Source of the DNA: Armatimonadota bacterium
GTDB taxonomy: Bacteria; Armatimonadota; UBA5829; DSUL01
DNA length: 64,000 bases
Assembly: GCA_039811685.1 (NCBI GenBank)
Contig: JBDHZC010000009.1
Location: 64,001-128,000, forward strand
Direction: 5' to 3'
The notes under the pieces are model-generated. The model was not told the DNA's origin, did no database searches, and worked only from the letters and a program-made list of their open reading frames with translations. Below are positions 27,113 through 37,141 of the stretch, piece after piece (the first letter of the stretch is position 1; every line of letters starts with the position of its first letter). The translations under genes and the position numbers were made by a program.

Positions 27113-27475
27113 GTGGTCCACGGTGCGGCGGTGGCGATCGGTTCTTCGCGCGGGTTGGCGCAGACGCTCTGGCGGCCGGCGCTGGAGGCGGTTGGCTCTG
27201 AGGGCACAGAAGCGCAGACGGGAGTGGCGTATCTGCTGGAGCGCGAGTTTCGCGAAGTGGTGGCGCTGGCGCGGATGAGCTTTCGGGAACGCGAGGCTCT
27301 GGAAATGGCTCGCTGCGGATGGAGTGAGACGGAGATGGGCAGGGCGCTTTCTCTCAGCCGCTCTCAGACGACAGAGTTGCTCTCCAAAGCGCGACGGAAG
27401 CTACAGGCGGCGCGCGAGAGATATCCGTTTGCGGGTCTGTGGGAAGTTTACCGGGATGAAGTAGCGCGGCTGTAG
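27113..27475 (+). CDS. Sigma70 region 4-like HTH regulator (putative late activator)
   Basis: SFREREALEMARCGWSETEMGRALSLSRSQTTELLSKARRKL; AAGGAGG RBS. Confidence 0.7.
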   Translation: MVHGAAVAIGSSRGLAQTLWRPALEAVGSEGTEAQTGVAYLLEREFREVVALARMSFREREALEMARCGWSETEMGRALSLSRSQTTELLSKARRKLQAARERYPFAGLWEVYRDEVARL

Positions 27476-29286: not shown

Positions 29287-30384
29287 GTGGCAATAGCTGG
29301 TCTCTTGAAGCGTCTGAGGCGTGAGGGGAAGGGGTCTGAAGCGCCGGTGGAGCTGGCGGCAGCCAGGCGACGGTACTTATCCGGACCGGGCGCCTTGCTG
29401 CCGTACAATCCGGACGACCTTGCCCGGCGCGAGGGGCTGGAAGTGTACGACCGGATGCAGACGGATGCCCAGATTGCGGCGGCGCTGGTGACGAAGAAGT
29501 TTGCGGCACTGTCCGGGGGCTGGCGGGTTACGCCCGCTTCAGAGCGGCGCGAGGACGTGCAGGCGGCGCAGTTTTGTCACCGGGCACTGGAGGAGATGAA
29601 AGGGACGGTGGAAGACGCGCTCTACGGAGTGCTGGACGCTCTGGCAAAGGGCTACTCGGTGGCTGAGATGAACTTTGCGCGCGTTGGAGACCGCGTCGGT
29701 CTGGCGTCTATCAAACAGAAGGATCCGGCGCTGTTTGAGTTTGAGACAGACGAGTATCTGAACATCACAGCGCTTGTCAGGATAGGAACAGACGGAGATG
29801 AGCCCCGGAAGCTGCCTGTGGAGAAGTTCATCATCTACACCTACATGCCCACCTATGCGGACCCGCGGGGACGCTCGGATCTGCGCTCATGCTACCGCCA
29901 CTGGTGGACCAAAGATGTCATTCTGCGCTTTTTCGCGTCGTATCTGGAGCGCTTTGGCTCACCCGTGGTCAAGGGGACGTACCGCCGCGGGGCGACGCGC
30001 GCCCAGCAGGAGGATCTCCTGCGGATTCTGGACCGCATCCAGCAGGAGACCGCCATCGTCATTCCGGAGGACGTGACGGTGGATCTCCTTCAGGCGGGGC
30101 TGCAGGGCGAGAAGGGATTTCTGGAGGCCATCGCCTATCACGACCGGCAGATGGCCAAAGCCATCCTCGGAGAAACGCTGACACAGGAAGAGGGGCTGCG
30201 CACGGGCGCTCTGGCTCTGGCGAAGGTGCATCAGGATACGCTGAAGCTGCGTCTGCAGAAGATCAAGCGCGATCTGGAGGAGACTGTGGCGCGTGAGCAG
30301 ATTCTGCGTCCGCTGACACGGCTGAACTTTGCCGGAGCGGCTGTACCGCGGTTTGAGCTGGGCGCATTCGACGCCAGCGTGTGA
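29287..30384 (+). CDS. Portal protein (DUF935 / Mu gp29-like)
   Basis: DALAKGYSVAE, PRGRSDLR, YLERFGSP, KAILGETLT and AKVH. Confidence 0.85.
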   Translation: MAIAGLLKRLRREGKGSEAPVELAAARRRYLSGPGALLPYNPDDLARREGLEVYDRMQTDAQIAAALVTKKFAALSGGWRVTPASERREDVQAAQFCHRALEEMKGTVEDALYGVLDALAKGYSVAEMNFARVGDRVGLASIKQKDPALFEFETDEYLNITALVRIGTDGDEPRKLPVEKFIIYTYMPTYADPRGRSDLRSCYRHWWTKDVILRFFASYLERFGSPVVKGTYRRGATRAQQEDLLRILDRIQQETAIVIPEDVTVDLLQAGLQGEKGFLEAIAYHDRQMAKAILGETLTQEEGLRTGALALAKVHQDTLKLRLQKIKRDLEETVAREQILRPLTRLNFAGAAVPRFELGAFDASV

Positions 30385-30463: not shown

Positions 30464-30492
30464 TTGACATAAACTACCGAAGAGGGTATAAG
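30464..30492 (+). promoter_or_regulatory. Promoter TTGACA-17-TATAAG of the TAC cassette
   Basis: Near-consensus match. Confidence 0.75.
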
Positions 30493-30514
30493 ATAATTAA
30501 CCTGGAAGTTAACA

Positions 30515-30898
30515 ATGCCAGTCTCGCTCTGTAAGCTGCCGCTCGCAGAGAGGGTCCCTGCTGTTCAGTATGAGTTCTACCTGTGGACGGATGGTGAGCG
30601 CTCGCCCGTTGCCGAGTTTCTGAGTAGCCTCCAGCCCGCAGACCTGGACAAGGTCAAGGCGTTGCTGGTCCGGGTGGCGCGCTGCGGGATTCCGAGGAAT
30701 GGCGAGAGATACAAGCGTCTGGCGGGGAACTACGAAAATCTCCATGAGTTCAAGTTGCACCAGGTGAGGCTCTATTTCTTTATGGAGGGCAAGAAGATTG
30801 TCTTCACGGAGGCAGAGATCAAGAAGAGGGACCGGTCCAACCCCCAGGCGCTTGCCCGAGCTGATGCGCGACGACGGAGATATTCCAGTGAGAAGTAA
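30515..30898 (+). CDS. RelE/HigB (Gp49-like) toxin
   Basis: SPVAEFLSSL...KRLAG...LHEFK...RLYFF...KKRD pattern. Confidence 0.8.
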   Translation: MPVSLCKLPLAERVPAVQYEFYLWTDGERSPVAEFLSSLQPADLDKVKALLVRVARCGIPRNGERYKRLAGNYENLHEFKLHQVRLYFFMEGKKIVFTEAEIKKRDRSNPQALARADARRRRYSSEK

Positions 30899-30911
30899 AA
30901 GGACAGGCGAA

Positions 30912-31340
30912 ATGGCTGTAGATGATTTGTTGAAGAAGATGGCCGGGGGCGCCGAAAGCCCTGTCTATCAGACGGAGAAGGTTATTCTGGATTTCACGGA
31001 GCGCATCTGTGAGATTATGGAAGACTCGGGAACAAGCCGTGCTGAGCTGGCTGAACGGCTCGGGCGCTCTCGTCCGTGGGTGACCAAGCTCCTGAGAGGT
31101 GATCAGAATATGACCATTGCAACGATGGTCGGGGTCATGCTGGCTCTTGGCTACGAACTGAGGCTTGAGGCGCTGCCACGTGACAGGGTCGCTGCGCAGT
31201 GGCAACTCATTGAAGAGAGCCATCCTCCGGTGATTAAACTCTTTCCCAGGGCTGCGCGAGATATCTCTTATGAGTTTGAGGAAGAGCTGGTTGCAGCGGA
31301 AGCAGGGAGCACAGCCGATGGACACACTGTCGCCGCTTGA
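30912..31340 (+). CDS. Xre-HTH antitoxin (HigA-like) with C-terminal extension
   Basis: SRAELAERLGRSRPWVTKLLRGDQNMTIATM; alternative start GTG 30888. Confidence 0.8.
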   Translation: MAVDDLLKKMAGGAESPVYQTEKVILDFTERICEIMEDSGTSRAELAERLGRSRPWVTKLLRGDQNMTIATMVGVMLALGYELRLEALPRDRVAAQWQLIEESHPPVIKLFPRAARDISYEFEEELVAAEAGSTADGHTVAA

Positions 31341-31776
31341 GGCGAACCGGATCTGGGTGGAGCGTCTGGATATTCGTTTTGCGCAGGAGCTTAGGGCGCA
31401 CGACTGCTCGGCCTACGATCTGAAGATTGAGCCAAAGGCATGGAAGGACGCCAGTGGTGTCTCATACAAAGTGCGCCTGGCTTTTGCGCTGCGGCCTCGA
31501 GAAGTGGACCAGTGCTGCTACTCAAAGCTGGATGTCGCGATCGTTGGGGTTTTTACACTTCCTAGTGATACGGATGAGGCGATTCGTAGAAACCTGATTC
31601 CACTCAACTGTTATGTGATTCTCTACGGTTTTGCGCGCGGTCTTGTTGCACAGGTTACCGGTCTGAACCCGGGTGGGCCGTTTCTCTTGCCAGCGGTCAA
31701 TTTTATGGAAGTCCTGCGCGCACAGCGGGCTCCGCGTCGCAAGGCCCTGAGGAGTGAGGTGGCGCAGGCTCAATAG
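31318..31776 (+). CDS. SecB-like chaperone
   Basis: VAIVGVF...NCYVILYGFARGLVAQVTG...PFLLPAVNF resembles the SecB C-terminal signature. Confidence 0.78.
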   Translation: MDTLSPLEANRIWVERLDIRFAQELRAHDCSAYDLKIEPKAWKDASGVSYKVRLAFALRPREVDQCCYSKLDVAIVGVFTLPSDTDEAIRRNLIPLNCYVILYGFARGLVAQVTGLNPGGPFLLPAVNFMEVLRAQRAPRRKALRSEVAQAQ

Positions 31777-31810
31777 ATAGGCGCGTTTTTCTGATAACGG
31801 CGGTTTTTTG

Positions 31811-31845
31811 AAGGCTCTTCGGACTTGTTCCGGAGGGCCTTTTTC
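31811..31845 (+). terminator. Intrinsic terminator closing the TAC cassette
   Basis: AAGGCTCTTCGGA-CTTGT-TCCGGAGGGCCTTTTT. Confidence 0.75.
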
Positions 31846-31888
31846 ATTGCCTGGCTTCGGTGTGAACCAGGAGAAAGGAAGGGTAGGC

Positions 31889-32032
31889 ATGGGGCTTCGT
31901 TGGCTGACACCTTTGTGGGCGGTGGTGCGCTCGGCGGTGCGGCGCAGGCTGCATGAGCTTGTAGATTCTGTGGATGAAGAAGATGTGGAGCGCTTTCGCG
32001 AGCGGCTGCACACCTGTATAGACCTGCTGTGA
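31889..32032 (+). CDS. Small hypothetical protein (47 aa)
   Basis: Purine-rich RBS, amphipathic N-terminus, lies just before the protease gene. Confidence 0.45.
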   Translation: MGLRWLTPLWAVVRSAVRRRLHELVDSVDEEDVERFRERLHTCIDLL

Positions 32033-32046
32033 GAGGAGATGTTCGT

Positions 32047-32847
32047 ATGACGCAAGGCAACAAGGGGACGACGCGCGGCCCGCTTGATGGGCAGCGCGCC
32101 GTAGTAGAACGCGAAGCGCTGCTGTTTGAAACCGGGGACTACCCGGACAAAAACCTGAGCGTTACAGAAGAGACTCTGACGGCAATGGAGAGCGCGTTTG
32201 CGGCTCCAGCGCCCATTCGAGTGGAGCATACGGAGTCTCCAGTGCGCTTTGGCTGGCTGACAAAGGTCTGGAAGAGCGGACGGGCGCTGATGGGCAAGCT
32301 CTCGTTTACGCAGGCGGCATGGGAGTTGGTGCGTGAGAGCGGGGCGCGTTGTCTGTCCATCGGACTCAACCGCGACACACTGGCCATCGAGGAAGTCTCG
32401 TTGGTACGCAGTCCACGTGTGGCTACCGCGCGCATCTTTTCAAACGAAGCGCTGGCCATTTTCACGGCCGATCTGACAGAGGCTTTTTCAGCGGACTCAG
32501 TTGGCGTGGAGGTGGCAAAGCTGCGCTCGGAGCTGGCGCTGCGGGACGCAAAGGAGGATGTGCGGCGCTTTCTTGAGCGCGGCAAGCTTGCTCCCGCGGC
32601 TCAGGACGCGGCGCTGGCTCTGTTGGCGGCCCGATCGGAGCGTGTCAACTTTGGTTCTGAGCCTACCTGCGTAGCTGAGGTGTTCCGGCAGTTTATGGAA
32701 GCGCAGCCGCCTGTGGTACTGTTTGGCGAGCTGGCACCCGGATCTGCTGCGAAGGCCGGCCGGTTCGGCCAGGAAGATAGAAGGGTCTTTGCTCTGATGG
32801 GGATCAGCGAAGACGACATTGCGCGATTTGAGAAGGAGGGAGACTGA
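32047..32847 (+). CDS. Capsid maturation protease/scaffold (Mu gpI-like)
   Basis: VEH, GWL, LSIG and VSLVRSP followed by a helical scaffold-like C-terminus; gene position. Confidence 0.7.
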   Translation: MTQGNKGTTRGPLDGQRAVVEREALLFETGDYPDKNLSVTEETLTAMESAFAAPAPIRVEHTESPVRFGWLTKVWKSGRALMGKLSFTQAAWELVRESGARCLSIGLNRDTLAIEEVSLVRSPRVATARIFSNEALAIFTADLTEAFSADSVGVEVAKLRSELALRDAKEDVRRFLERGKLAPAAQDAALALLAARSERVNFGSEPTCVAEVFRQFMEAQPPVVLFGELAPGSAAKAGRFGQEDRRVFALMGISEDDIARFEKEGD

Positions 32848-33261: not shown

Positions 33262-33265
33262 GGGA

Positions 33266-33467
33266 GGGTGTCGGTCTTGATGGCCGGGTGCAGGTGGCCG
33301 GCGGATAAAACCGCGCTTTCGAAGCGAAGTCTCCCTTCGGAGACTATTCGCTTTGTCACGTGTCGGGGGTGCCGGTCTTGATGGCCTGGTGCAGGTGGCC
33401 GGCGGTTAAAACCGCGCTTTCGAAGCGAAGTCTCCCTTCGGAGACTGTTGGTTTTGTCACGTGTCGG
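33266..33467 (+). repeat. Two tandem 101-bp units, each carrying a REP palindrome
   Basis: GGCCGGCGGWTAAAACCGCG...AAGTCTCCCTTCGGAGACT twice. Confidence 0.85.
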
Positions 33468-33523
33468 GGGTGGGCCGGTGATGCGGGTGCGGGTGCGGGA
33501 AAATAGGGAGGTTAGAAGAAGCT

Positions 33524-34420
33524 ATGGGAATTGTAAAATCGGACATTCCCGCCGGGCTGACGGCGGGCGTGCGGGCGCTGTTTCTGAGATCAATGGAGAC
33601 AGCGCCCTCGCACTACCGGAAGCTGGCGATGGTGATGCCATCCACAAAAAGTGAGGAGAAATACGCCTGGCTTTCGAGCGTGCCGGGCGTGCGGGAGTTC
33701 GTGGACGAGCGCCGGGCGGCGAGTTTGCAGGAGCGCTCCTTCACCATTGAAAACAAGACGTGGGAAGCGACTATTGAGGTGGAGCGCGCGGCGCTGGAAG
33801 ACGAGCAGTATGGGCAGATCAAACTGAGAGTGCAATCTCTGGCTGAGGCAGCGGCGCGCCACAAAGAGCAGATGGTCATAGACCTGCTGGCCAGAGGCTT
33901 TACTGATGAGTGCTATGATGGAGAGCCGTTCTTTTCCAGCACTCACCCTGCCGGGAGCGCTACACAATCCAACACGGGCGCCTCCGCTCTGTCTGCGTCT
34001 GCTGTGCAGTCAGCTATCTCTCAGATGGCGAAGCTGACGGACGAAGAGGGGCGGCCGCTGGGAGTTGTTGCGGACACGCTGATTGTGCCCCCCGATCTGG
34101 AATGGAAAGCTCTGGAGCTGGTAGGCAGTATTCTGGGTCCGGAGACGAGCCTGAACGCGATCAACCCTCTGCGCGGTCGTCTGGAAGTTATCGTGAGTCC
34201 GTACCTGACAGACGCGAACAACTGGTTTGTCGCAGCGACGAAAAGCGCCCTGAAGCCGTTCATTCTGCAGGAACGCACGGCTGTGGAGTTTGAGGCTCTG
34301 GATGGGCAGTCCGGCTCTGAGAGCGCCTTCATGCGGGATCGCTTCTACTACGGTGTGCGCGCCCGCTACAACGCGGGATACGGGCTTTGGCAGCTTGCCT
34401 ATGGCAGCGCGGTTAGCTAG
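33524..34420 (+). CDS. Major capsid protein (Mu gpT-like)
   Basis: EKYAWL, ENKTWEATI, CYDGEPFFSSTH, LIVPPDLE and YGLWQLAYGS. Confidence 0.9.
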   Translation: MGIVKSDIPAGLTAGVRALFLRSMETAPSHYRKLAMVMPSTKSEEKYAWLSSVPGVREFVDERRAASLQERSFTIENKTWEATIEVERAALEDEQYGQIKLRVQSLAEAAARHKEQMVIDLLARGFTDECYDGEPFFSSTHPAGSATQSNTGASALSASAVQSAISQMAKLTDEEGRPLGVVADTLIVPPDLEWKALELVGSILGPETSLNAINPLRGRLEVIVSPYLTDANNWFVAATKSALKPFILQERTAVEFEALDGQSGSESAFMRDRFYYGVRARYNAGYGLWQLAYGSAVS

Positions 34421-34501: not shown

Positions 34502-35005
34502 ATGAGCGATTCTAGAAACGTGCTACCCGTAGCCGTTGATCTGGCGACAAAGCTGGCGGGTGAGGATCAGGTTAACGACTGGACAAAAACGGTGCGTGGC
34601 GGCCCGAGCGCCGCTCGCGTCTATACGCCGGAAGACACCGGCATCAACGGCCAGACGCTCGGGTCGGCGCTTGCGGGCAACTGGGTGGACACTGCGGGCT
34701 TTCGCACTGCCGTCGCGTTCATCCGCGTCGCGGGGACGTACGGCGGGTCCCCTTACGGTCTGGACCTGCTCGGCAGTCCCGTCGGCCCTGGAGACACCTG
34801 GGGGACGGACAATCAGTGGGCGGTGTCTCTTGGAAACCGCAGCGGTCTCACGGCGCTTGGCAGCTTCGTGCTCGGCAACACAGGCGTGGGCAACTACGCG
34901 TCGTCCTCGGCGTGGACTGGCTGCGTTGCCCGAAAGAGCCGTGTGGACGTCGGGGCAGCCGGCGCGAGCGCTCAGGCCTGGGCCTATCTGGTTTGTCTGC
35001 CATGA
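34502..35005 (+). CDS. Hypothetical Gly/Thr-rich protein (possible head fibre or spike)
   Basis: AAGGAG RBS; stop overlaps the next start (ATGA). Confidence 0.6.
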   Translation: MSDSRNVLPVAVDLATKLAGEDQVNDWTKTVRGGPSAARVYTPEDTGINGQTLGSALAGNWVDTAGFRTAVAFIRVAGTYGGSPYGLDLLGSPVGPGDTWGTDNQWAVSLGNRSGLTALGSFVLGNTGVGNYASSSAWTGCVARKSRVDVGAAGASAQAWAYLVCLP

Positions 35006-35691
35006 GAGCCAGATTCCACTACAGACGCATCTGGTTTCTGGGCGACAGCCTGACTGCTGGCTATGACGCATCCGCTGAGAGCGCGTGCTTTCGCACTGTC
35101 GCTACAGCATCGCTGCAGGCAGCAGCCCTGCTGCAGGACGCAGGGGCCCTGGTGATCCATTCAGCCAACCAGTACGGTGGAAAAGTCAAAGACGGCGTAC
35201 GGCAGGCCATTGCGGAGGCCTCCTTTGCCGCAGACATCGCGGTGCTGCAGTTTGGAGAAAATGACCGGCCCTACGCTGTAGCCTTTCCAGAGCAGTACGC
35301 CCGGCTGATTGCCCAGTTTCAGCGGGAAGGGCGGCGGCCGCTGATTGTGGCTTTCTCCATCTGGGCGCCAACGCCAGACGCCTACAGCGCAGCCGTCAAT
35401 GCCGATATTCGCGCTCTGGTAGAGACTTCAGGAGGCGCTTTTGTGGACATTCAGGCGGCGGCATCCGATCCGTTGAACCGCGAAGAAGGCCGGGATGTCA
35501 CCTGGCTGGGGGATGAGCAGCACACTCTGTCTGACAGTTTTCATCCCAACGACAGAGGGCATGCAAAGATGGCCACTGCCCTGATAGACGCGCTGTCCCC
35601 GTGGACAGCAGCAGGGCCACGGCGTCTCGCGGCTTCCGGGCGGCAGAGCTCGCAGACGCGCGGGGCTGCAGCGGAGCGGGTGAGCGCGTGA
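35002..35691 (+). CDS. SGNH/GDSL hydrolase
   Basis: LGDSLT, GEND and DSFHP blocks. Confidence 0.85.
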   Translation: MRARFHYRRIWFLGDSLTAGYDASAESACFRTVATASLQAAALLQDAGALVIHSANQYGGKVKDGVRQAIAEASFAADIAVLQFGENDRPYAVAFPEQYARLIAQFQREGRRPLIVAFSIWAPTPDAYSAAVNADIRALVETSGGAFVDIQAAASDPLNREEGRDVTWLGDEQHTLSDSFHPNDRGHAKMATALIDALSPWTAAGPRRLAASGRQSSQTRGAAAERVSA

Positions 35692-36142: not shown

Positions 36143-36444
36143 TGGGGGCTTTTACAAAGCGGATGGATGCGAAGCTGGCAGTGTACGGTGAGCTTATCTC
36201 GCTGGGTGGTGTGGATGTGCGCGCGCTGGTGCAGGACATGACCAGCAGCTACATTACTACCTACTTTGACCCGCCGGATCAGTCTTCCGTGATCCGTCCG
36301 GGACTGCTGGCCGTTGTCGGGGCGGACGTTTCGGCGAGCGCTGGGCAGTCGGTAAGTCTGGGCGCGCGGACCTACACCGTGTGGAAGGTGGCGCCTCAAC
36401 ATCTGGCTGGTCAGGTCGTCTGTCAGGTGCTGGCGCTTTATTGA
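36142..36444 (+). CDS. Putative head-closure (stopper) protein
   Basis: About 100 aa beta-rich, G-x-x-V...TYTV pattern; follows the adaptor. Confidence 0.5.
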   Translation: MGAFTKRMDAKLAVYGELISLGGVDVRALVQDMTSSYITTYFDPPDQSSVIRPGLLAVVGADVSASAGQSVSLGARTYTVWKVAPQHLAGQVVCQVLALY

Positions 36445-36455
36445 AAGGAGGGAGA

Positions 36456-36686
36456 GTGGATAGTAGAGATATTATGTCGCGCCTGGCGGTTATTGAGGCG
36501 CGGCTGCAGGATGCGCTTGGGCATCTAGTGGAGATCCGCCGGCATGTGCCAGGCACGCTGATTTCGCATACCGAACGGATAGCCTCTGTTGAGCGCGCGC
36601 AGAGAAGTCTGGTCTGGGGACTGGCGGCTGCGTTTGGTGGGTTCTTGAGCGCTTTTGTCGCTCACATCTTTGGAGGATTGCCATGA
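36456..36686 (+). CDS. XhlA-like holin / lysis membrane protein
   Basis: Coiled-coil N-terminus plus one C-terminal TM helix; AAGGAGG RBS; precedes the lysin. Confidence 0.55.
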   Translation: MDSRDIMSRLAVIEARLQDALGHLVEIRRHVPGTLISHTERIASVERAQRSLVWGLAAAFGGFLSAFVAHIFGGLP

Positions 36687-37141
36687 TAAGCGCGCAGAGC
36701 GCCGGCGCCCAGCTCGCCGAAGTTTGTGCCCATCTGGCGCACTGGCGCAAGGGCGCGGCCAACCCGGAAGGACGTTGTCTGGAAGCGGTGCGCTGGGCCC
36801 TGGCGCAGGAAGCCTTGAGTCTCCCTGGCCCCTTTGTGCGCCCGAACAACACGGCATTGGGGTGCTTTGATGCCCTGGAGAAAGCGCCGGAGCGGTGGAG
36901 CTGGCAGAGATGGACCCACGCGCAGCATCCCGGACAGAGCCTGCCGCTATGCCTGGTGTTTTTCAAGGACTGCGGGTATCTGTCCGACGGTCGCGTTGCC
37001 GGGCACGTGGCGGTGTACGACCCGGCCCGCCGCCGCCATGAGGCGAATCAGGTATATCCGATGACGCTGTGGTGGGCGCAGCGGTTGATCGGGGCGTTTG
37101 TGCCGCTCAGAAGGCCGGGTATTGGAGGCGCCGGCGGTTGA
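36683..37141 (+). CDS. CHAP/NlpC-P60-like endolysin
   Basis: GRCLEAV...LVFF...GHVAVY...HEAN catalytic pattern. Confidence 0.6.
   Translation: MISAQSAGAQLAEVCAHLAHWRKGAANPEGRCLEAVRWALAQEALSLPGPFVRPNNTALGCFDALEKAPERWSWQRWTHAQHPGQSLPLCLVFFKDCGYLSDGRVAGHVAVYDPARRRHEANQVYPMTLWWAQRLIGAFVPLRRPGIGGAGG

Follow-up and report, generated by a model that had tools for sequence, protein, structure and literature searches.

The 64,000-nt stretch of DNA from an uncultured Armatimonadota bacterium analysed here (contig JBDHZC010000009.1, positions 64,001 to 128,000; in the following the window) harbours, within a cluster of phage head genes, a small cassette of three genes coding for a HigB-like toxin, an Xre-type antitoxin and a SecB-like chaperone. 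It is highly probable that this cassette represents a functional toxin-antitoxin-chaperone (TAC) module of the HigBAC type, and every feature that marks such a module at the level of sequence was found in it. Phage morons are independent transcription units placed between conserved phage genes, and the explanation that we favour for the locus as a whole, with fair confidence, is that of a HigBAC-type TAC carried as a moron and working as an anti-phage switch. By analogy with characterised systems, defence against other phages could well be the role for which the cassette has been selected, the chances for this being about even or slightly better. Prophage-borne TACs defend E. coli with the help of a chaperone that senses gpV, a tail protein of lambda, or Gp23, a capsid protein of T4 (bioRxiv 10.1101/2024.02.24.581848; PMC11618068), which agrees with a preliminary description of the cassette, made from the DNA letters alone, that had named virion proteins as the triggers of E. 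coli HigBAC and CmdTAC.

The preliminary description had called the third protein SecB-like and had proposed structure prediction against SecB as the check, and the fold is present. The chaperone model (predicted local distance difference test score, pLDDT, 91; predicted template modelling score, pTM, 0.83) has its best Foldseek match in the M. tuberculosis TAC chaperone (5mtw, Rv1957 with its chaperone addiction, ChAD, peptide; E 2.1e-7), followed by the canonical SecB structures 1fx3 and 1qyn (template modelling score, TM, 0.64-0.72), and 23 matches were obtained at E <= 0.001. At the profile level, a 93-row alignment of the chaperone finds the SecB proteins of E. coli and H. influenzae in full-length matches, with E values from 7.7e-7 (1fx3) to 6.7e-6. 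This alignment consists of the query, the four relatives that a word-based protein search yields besides it, and 88 of the best 150 among the 438 relatives that an exhaustive HMMER search recovers at E <= 0.001, while very long, truncated and many lower-ranked relatives are omitted. The PADLOC models of PD-T4-9_C are matched with E values of 1.5e-6 and 2.2e-6. The protein with the predicted SecB fold is encoded directly 3' of the antitoxin, the position expected for a TAC chaperone. When two chaperone copies were modelled together with antitoxin residues 88-142, the complex predictions scored 0.33, 0.07 and 0.01, values that speak neither for nor against binding.

Regarding the antitoxin, several Xre-type helix-turn-helix (HTH) models of Pfam match near or under their cut-offs, the best being HTH_31, and among the PADLOC components of PDC-M64 the model PDC-M64C is matched with E 5.5e-9. 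The antitoxin profile matches the HTH antitoxins HipB, HigA and HicB, with 15 PDB sequences at E <= 0.01, in line with the Xre antitoxin first proposed. A C-terminal extension beyond the HTH domain, as expected for the antitoxin of a TAC, is predicted for the protein in the window, and such extensions were present in all 12 relatives. The tail contains the aromatic residues W97, F111, Y120 and F122, and its position and composition suggest that it serves as the ChAD. All 13 antitoxins, the one of the window included, end with either -AA (10 proteins) or -VA (3 proteins). In this regard it is of importance that the Val-Ala end of M. tuberculosis HigA1 marks this antitoxin for ClpXP (Mets et al., bioRxiv 10.1101/2024.02.24.581848), as does the LAA end of CmdA (PMC11618068). 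Such a degron has been described for several TACs, though not for all of them. The genome to which the window belongs carries a clpP-clpX pair, and together with the conserved C-termini this points to a ClpXP-type degron on the antitoxin, which may depend on ClpXP for its degradation.

The toxin was correctly described as RelE/HigB-like at the outset: it matches the Pfam family Gp49 with 27.2 bits (cut-off 23.9; E 4.2e-6), and its model, built from nine orthologues (pLDDT 90.6), is best superimposed on S. pneumoniae HigB (TM 0.67-0.78). M. tuberculosis HigB1, the toxin of the TAC in that organism, also matches (7awk with TM 0.66/0.69, and 7nbu; 0.66-0.71 across both), and RelE, YafQ, YoeB and HigB appear as farther structural matches, with 7 matches at E <= 0.001. 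The profile of the nine orthologues finds S. pneumoniae HigB (6af3) with E 3.9e-6. The residues E78, K80, R85, K103 and K104 are invariant in all nine sequences, and K80, R85 and K103 align with the catalytic residues R68, R73 and K92 of S. pneumoniae HigB as equated by Mansour et al. (PMC9098466). Sequence and model together predict a RelE/HigB (Gp49-like) fold with basic catalytic residues, as would be required of the toxin in a HigBAC-type TAC, and the protein probably acts as an RNase. The word-based search yielded one relative of the toxin besides the query, and a second copy of the toxin was not found in the genome itself. As a side observation, a contig from another study (X6) differs from the window at 52 positions over 5.8 kb, at least 17 of which fall within the 384-nt toxin gene (at least 12 synonymous, at least 5 non-synonymous), so that polymorphism in this gene exceeds that of the flanking head genes severalfold.

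Several observations indicate that the three genes belong together. They are all encoded on the plus strand in the order toxin, antitoxin, chaperone, with a gap of 13 nt between the first two and an overlap of 23 nt between the last two. The same tricistronic order, typical of TACs, was encountered in 8 of the 13 related loci that were recovered from species-representative genomes when a 13-row chaperone alignment served as the query; another four consist of antitoxin and chaperone accompanied by a toxin that the query did not recognise, and the last contig is too short. These loci belong to Armatimonadota, an unclassified bacterium and deltaproteobacterial metagenome-assembled genomes. The contig X6 bridges the whole cassette, and its differences within the three genes (at least 19 synonymous, at least 7 non-synonymous) would argue for purifying selection on them, while in a second sequencing run (X4) the cassette is likewise joined to the portal gene. 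It is very improbable that the three genes do not form one system. A general export SecB standing beside an ordinary HigBA pair would fit the absence of a second SecB-family gene from the genome (3.42 Mb, 97% complete) and the full-length profile matches to canonical SecB, however, the NCBIfam SecB equivalog models are matched with at most 30.1 bits at cut-offs of 102.8-223 (143 for the best model), and relatives of the chaperone occur in 13 of 301 sampled genomes of the phylum, patchily and spread across families, so that the protein is not a housekeeping gene of the lineage. Canonical export SecB was rejected for these reasons. Moreover, the chaperone gene starts within the antitoxin gene, and the antitoxin accompanies the chaperone in 12 of the 13 loci. 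Decay into an inactive cassette, to which a Glu in the toxin at a position where relatives have a core Phe might point, is opposed by the three intact open reading frames (ORFs), by the predominantly synonymous differences in X6, and by the conservation of the antitoxin tail and of its -AA end.

The predicted regulatory elements of the cassette are listed in Table 1. The promoter hexamers at the spacing noted in the preliminary description were confirmed, and a search for TTGACA-N16-18-TATAAK yields this single site in the 64 kb of the window and nothing in 100 shuffled versions; the predicted promoter probably drives the cassette. The inverted repeat between the -10 hexamer and the toxin start has no second match in the window when up to one mismatch is allowed. 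An equivalent palindrome lies 2-8 nt upstream of the toxin ATG in all eight loci with the toxin-antitoxin-chaperone order, being perfect in five of them (window, L011, L016, L019, L020) and containing one mismatch in the other three (L012, L013, L017), and it might be the site at which the antitoxin binds. The intrinsic terminator, which had also been proposed before, is predicted as a hairpin of 14 bp, composed of an 11-bp core stem and three A/G-U pairs that use the start of the U run, the latter being U5 when counted after the core stem. A 91-nt stretch around it folds with a minimum free energy of -31.3 kcal/mol (z -2.53), and 5 of 200 shuffled sequences fold equally well. A consensus scan of the window for promoters and terminators misses both of these cassette elements, in the case of the promoter because its rule calls for a T as the final letter of the -10 hexamer; the identification of the promoter and the terminator therefore relies on their own pattern and folding checks and on conservation. 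In this respect, a related cassette in another genus of the same family (locus L007) is preceded by identical hexamers at identical 17-nt spacing and followed at the corresponding 3' position by a hairpin with U6.

Table 1. Positions within the window of the cassette features and of the genes bordering them.
Feature	Position	Strand	Length	Basis or remark
Mu-type portal gene, left boundary	29287..30384	+		Pfam Portal_Mu E 4.5e-70; PHROG 113
Sigma-70-like promoter	30464..30492	+		-35 TTGACA 30464-30469, 17-nt spacer, -10 TATAAG 30487-30492; read from sequence
Putative antitoxin operator	30497..30512	.		Perfect inverted repeat TTAAC-CTGGAA-GTTAA (TTAAC-N6-GTTAA) between -10 and toxin ATG
Toxin, HigB1/Gp49-like RelE-fold putative mRNA interferase	30515..30898	+	127 aa	Pfam Gp49; predicted fold
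Antitoxin	30912..31340	+	142 aa	Xre-type HTH (about residues 30-85) and 57-residue C-terminal tail ending Ala-Ala
SecB-like (SecB-TA) chaperone	31318..31776	+	152 aa	Start overlaps antitoxin end by 23 nt
Intrinsic terminator, predicted	31810..31847	+		Hairpin 31810-31842, then U run
Conserved ORF, right boundary	31889..32032	+	47 aa	5' of protease in all related clusters; junction DNA alignment
Mu-like protease/scaffold gene	32029..32847	+		PHROG 976 head maturation protease E 2e-12

The position of the cassette speaks for an insertion into a pre-existing gene cluster. It had been placed between portal and protease, which holds for the portal on its left side; its right neighbour is a conserved ORF of 47 codons, and the protease follows only after this. 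The small ORF matches none of the Pfam families, and it shares 58% identity (E 6e-17) with its counterpart in L007. The protease/scaffold protein scores 22.3 bits against Pfam Mu-like_Pro, under the cut-off of 25.2. Of the other five genomes in the family, four encode orthologous portal proteins at 67-73% identity, and a portal pattern search of the genome contigs gave 45 matches, none of which was confirmed. The preliminary description had suggested looking for orthologous clusters that lack the cassette, and in three of them, all from one genus (L008, L009, L010), the portal gene is followed by a few dozen bases, the small ORF and the protease gene, with no cassette exactly at this junction. 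L007, on the other hand, has its cassette at the same junction, complete with promoter hexamers, operator and terminator, although the cassette proteins of L007 and of the window share only 51-55% identity. The G+C content of the cassette (0.54-0.58) is lower than that of the flanking head genes (0.59-0.66). An own promoter and terminator, insertion and deviant composition are what is expected of a phage moron, and as far as can be judged from sequence the cassette has them all. The head proteins of the window genome (G000) and of the genome carrying L007 (G004) share more identity with one another than with their counterparts in the genus without the cassette (76% vs 68% identity for the capsid, 72% vs 48% for orf34439), and one gain of the cassette in the common ancestor of G000 and G004 is the simplest reading of the sequences; alternatively, the cassette may have been lost in the genus of L008-L010.

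Two further genes were noticed in these clusters. First, a 319-aa gene with a PEP-CTERM-like end (L007 8211-9170, minus strand; weak Pfam match, E 0.0096) is located at the portal/protease junction of L007, which suggests that this junction is an insertion hot spot. Second, a GDSL-lipase/acylhydrolase gene (window 34816-35691; Pfam E 3.6e-16) lies within the head cluster of G000 and G004 and is absent from the three clusters that are also without the TAC cassette; it looks like a second moron.

From the work on characterised TACs (bioRxiv 10.1101/2024.02.24.581848, PMC11618068, PMC5105189, PMC4257090), the following mode of action can be proposed for the cassette. In the resting cell, its own promoter would produce toxin, antitoxin and chaperone as one transcript, with the Xre-type antitoxin repressing this promoter at the TTAAC-N6-GTTAA palindrome and the terminator shielding the downstream protease and capsid genes from the constitutive cassette transcription. 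The chaperone would grip the aromatic tail of the antitoxin, thereby keeping it soluble and hiding its Ala-Ala end from ClpXP, and the protected antitoxin would neutralise the HigB1-like toxin; the antitoxin would thus be addicted to its chaperone, as in the analogous systems. A competing client of the chaperone, conceivably a structural protein freshly synthesised by an infecting phage, would leave the antitoxin to degradation. The freed toxin could then cut mRNA on the ribosome, translation would stop and the infection would be aborted.

Among known systems, HigB1-HigA1-SecB(TA) of M. tuberculosis (Rv1955-Rv1957) is alike in the order of the three genes, in a Gp49-like RelE-fold toxin with a long C-terminal helix, in an HTH antitoxin with an aromatic-rich C-terminal extension and an aliphatic C-terminal dipeptide, and in the SecB-fold chaperone, which provides the best structural match. 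It differs by an identity of only 14-21% in the structural alignments, by its occurrence in another phylum and by its setting, since the present cassette sits within a phage-head cluster. The cassette tail is probably not alignable to the described ChAD, and the position of F93 in HigB1 is here occupied by Glu. The M. tuberculosis system has been reported as stress-responsive, and defence is not among its roles in the accessible parts of the reports. HigBAC of E. coli NT1F31 (Mets et al., bioRxiv 10.1101/2024.02.24.581848) also comprises a HigB-type toxin, an HTH antitoxin and a SecB-like chaperone; it is prophage-borne, spaced aromatics in its antitoxin tail dock into the chaperone, and its defence is triggered by a virion protein. 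Its ChAD measures 96 residues, compared with 57 residues for the cassette tail, and it is reportedly independent of ClpXP, whereas the -AA end of the cassette antitoxin suggests ClpXP. CmdTAC, also named PD-T4-9 (Vassallo et al., PMC11618068), resembles the cassette in its chaperone, given the PADLOC matches mentioned above; its antitoxin ends with LAA and is degraded by ClpP, its chaperone senses a capsid protein (PMC11618068), and it resides in a P2-like prophage (bioRxiv 10.1101/2024.02.24.581848). However, CmdT is an mRNA ADP-ribosyltransferase, while the cassette toxin has a RelE/HigB fold. Membership in CmdTAC was rejected, because the toxin is Gp49/HigB-like and only the chaperone matches a PD-T4-9 model.

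Prophage-borne TACs were already known, hence the novelty lies in the phylum and in the unusual place. The HigBAC type would be extended to Armatimonadota, a barely studied phylum, and the TTAAC-N6-GTTAA operator, the -AA/-VA antitoxin end and the toxin motif E-x-K...R...KK are signatures by which further modules of this sort might be recognised. TACs have recently come to be understood as phage sensors whose chaperone reads newly made virion proteins, and a module that may sense capsid or tail proteins, placed amid the genes of a capsid operon, raises the question of how the structural proteins of its own carrier are avoided or exploited. A TAC within a head operon was not met with in the literature searched, a weak absence given that supplements and subscription journals were outside the coverage. 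As a moron, the cassette shares with known examples its own promoter and terminator, its place between two genes that adjoin each other in related clusters, and a G+C content lower than that of its flanks. Of the preliminary assignment to a moron within a head operon, the insertion was borne out; the carrier turned out to be a tail-less head cluster of phylum-wide occurrence and is neither an evident complete prophage nor, in contrast to the carriers of known morons, a demonstrable complete phage.

Some results weigh against a HigBAC-type TAC that serves as an anti-phage moron. The chaperone exceeds the Pfam SecB cut-off of 26 only barely (26.2 bits), the antitoxin stays below that of HTH_31 (26.3 bits, cut-off 27), and single-sequence searches of PDB with the toxin and with the chaperone gave no match, so that the links of both proteins to known ones rest on profiles and predicted folds. 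The antitoxin tails align poorly with each other apart from their last residues. In the toxin, Glu101 sits at the core aromatic position, which corresponds to F90 in HigB from S. pneumoniae and to F93 in HigB1 from M. tuberculosis; this position is Glu, Val or Asp within the Armatimonadota clade and Phe in the deltaproteobacterial relatives. Moreover, the 13-row chaperone alignment found no relative among 2.9 million viral contigs, and a tblastn search of 50,697 phage records with the chaperone as query was likewise without a match; the phage link of this subfamily therefore rests on two genomes. The predicted cassette terminator lies across the path of any transcript of the head operon, which leaves the expression of the downstream head genes unaccounted for, and no promoter was seen downstream of it. 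Finally, the triad lies beside a Mutator-family transposase gene in L017 and amid housekeeping genes in L012; it therefore moves as a unit, and such settings suit a selfish mobile toxin-antitoxin (TA) system as well as a defence gene.

The last point leads to the view of the cassette as an addiction module that is selfish or stabilising, acting by post-segregational killing or protecting the head cluster from deletion, with no role in phage defence. We regard this as rather unlikely. The mobile, stand-alone nature of the triad and its patchy distribution in the phylum would be consistent with it, and stabilisation was the role in which TA systems were discovered, as exemplified by HigBA of plasmid Rts1 (bioRxiv 10.1101/2024.02.24.581848). 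Nevertheless, a relative of the portal occurs in 101 of the 301 sampled genomes, and among the genomes with both proteins the chaperone and portal genes adjoin only in G000 and G004; the head cluster is thus maintained without a TAC elsewhere, and the cassette is not needed for this purpose. Post-segregational killing would be of little use to chromosomal single-copy loci, and the TACs with a demonstrated biological role are all defensive, as far as the accessible parts of the literature tell (bioRxiv 10.1101/2024.02.24.581848, PMC11618068).

It appears improbable, furthermore, that the cassette is wired into the particle production of its element, either in such a way that the element's own capsid or scaffold protein titrates the chaperone away at a late stage of induction, whereupon the toxin stops host translation, or in such a way that read-through adds chaperone and renders the own capsid harmless. 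The cassette has the same orientation as the head genes and lies between the portal and the protease/capsid genes, and with this shared orientation inside the head operon upstream transcription must enter it. Junction, promoter, operator and terminator have been kept in two genera despite the divergence of the cassette proteins, the known triggers of TACs are capsid or tail proteins, and surplus chaperone abolishes the defence by CmdTAC (PMC11618068, bioRxiv 10.1101/2024.02.24.581848). Several observations speak against such wiring: three sister clusters and three class-level clusters (L028, L029, L030) keep the tail-less gene set without any cassette, the same triad occurs away from head genes, and the unrelated PEP-CTERM gene at the L007 junction suggests a permissive site rather than functional coupling. 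A related and equally doubtful idea is that the position is functional in the sense of self-tolerance, read-through raising chaperone and own capsid together while the capsids of superinfecting foreign relatives trip the toxin at basal chaperone levels. If true, it would provide a natural example of a capsid-sensing TAC that discriminates self from non-self. Contigs from two metatranscriptomes (X19, X20) cover terL, portal, protease, capsid, orf34439 and the GDSL gene, and from the cassette only a piece of 21 nt; such contigs indicate neither transcription nor its absence. Among these explanations, an anti-phage TAC carried as a moron remains the one that we prefer.

The carrier of the cassette is the larger surprise, i.e. 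a tail-less Mu-like cluster for head formation, packaging and possibly lysis in one of every three genomes sampled from the phylum. In the window it spans from a small regulator of the sigma-70 region 4/LuxR-like type (27113) to about 36686, in the order regulator, terS, terL, portal, 47-aa ORF, protease/scaffold, decoration protein, gpT capsid and four or five small ORFs, and it is flanked by housekeeping genes for a PhyH-like dioxygenase and a fatty-acid desaturase. Neither an integrase, a nearby tRNA nor a recognisable tail gene was found in the region, and the whole genome has no match to the two tail families queried, Phage_sheath_1 and PhageMin_Tail. The gpT capsid gene is single in the genome and located in this cluster. 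Relatives of the portal are mostly single copy (96 of 238 good-quality genomes have one), and their identity drops with kinship, from 67-69% in the family to 51-56% within the class and 26-49% beyond. The carrier gives the impression of a domesticated capsid element passed on by vertical descent, and it may be similar to a gene transfer agent or to a satellite that borrows tails. In the accessible literature on gene transfer agents of Armatimonadota, no paper on this element was found.

Several minor features of the carrier were also recorded. The regulator gene (27113-27475), which codes for a protein with an HTH of the sigma-70 region 4/LuxR type, has the reverse orientation in the genus without the cassette (L008 4679-5164, minus). 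Between the decoration and capsid genes are two identical 18-nt hairpins (AGTCTCCCTTCGGAGACT) at 33328-33345 and 33429-33446, and the RNA-library contig X19 joins 33262 to 33518 via 68 other letters, a variant of the hairpin spacer. The capsid protein (33524-34420) matches Pfam Mu-like_gpT in three stretches of permuted order, corresponding to model positions 4-148, 218-289 and 154-218. At the end of the cluster, a small ORF with a hydrophobic C-terminal segment (36381-36686) is kept in relatives, and it is followed by an ORF of 152 codons (36683-37141) that matches no family; these two could be lysis genes.

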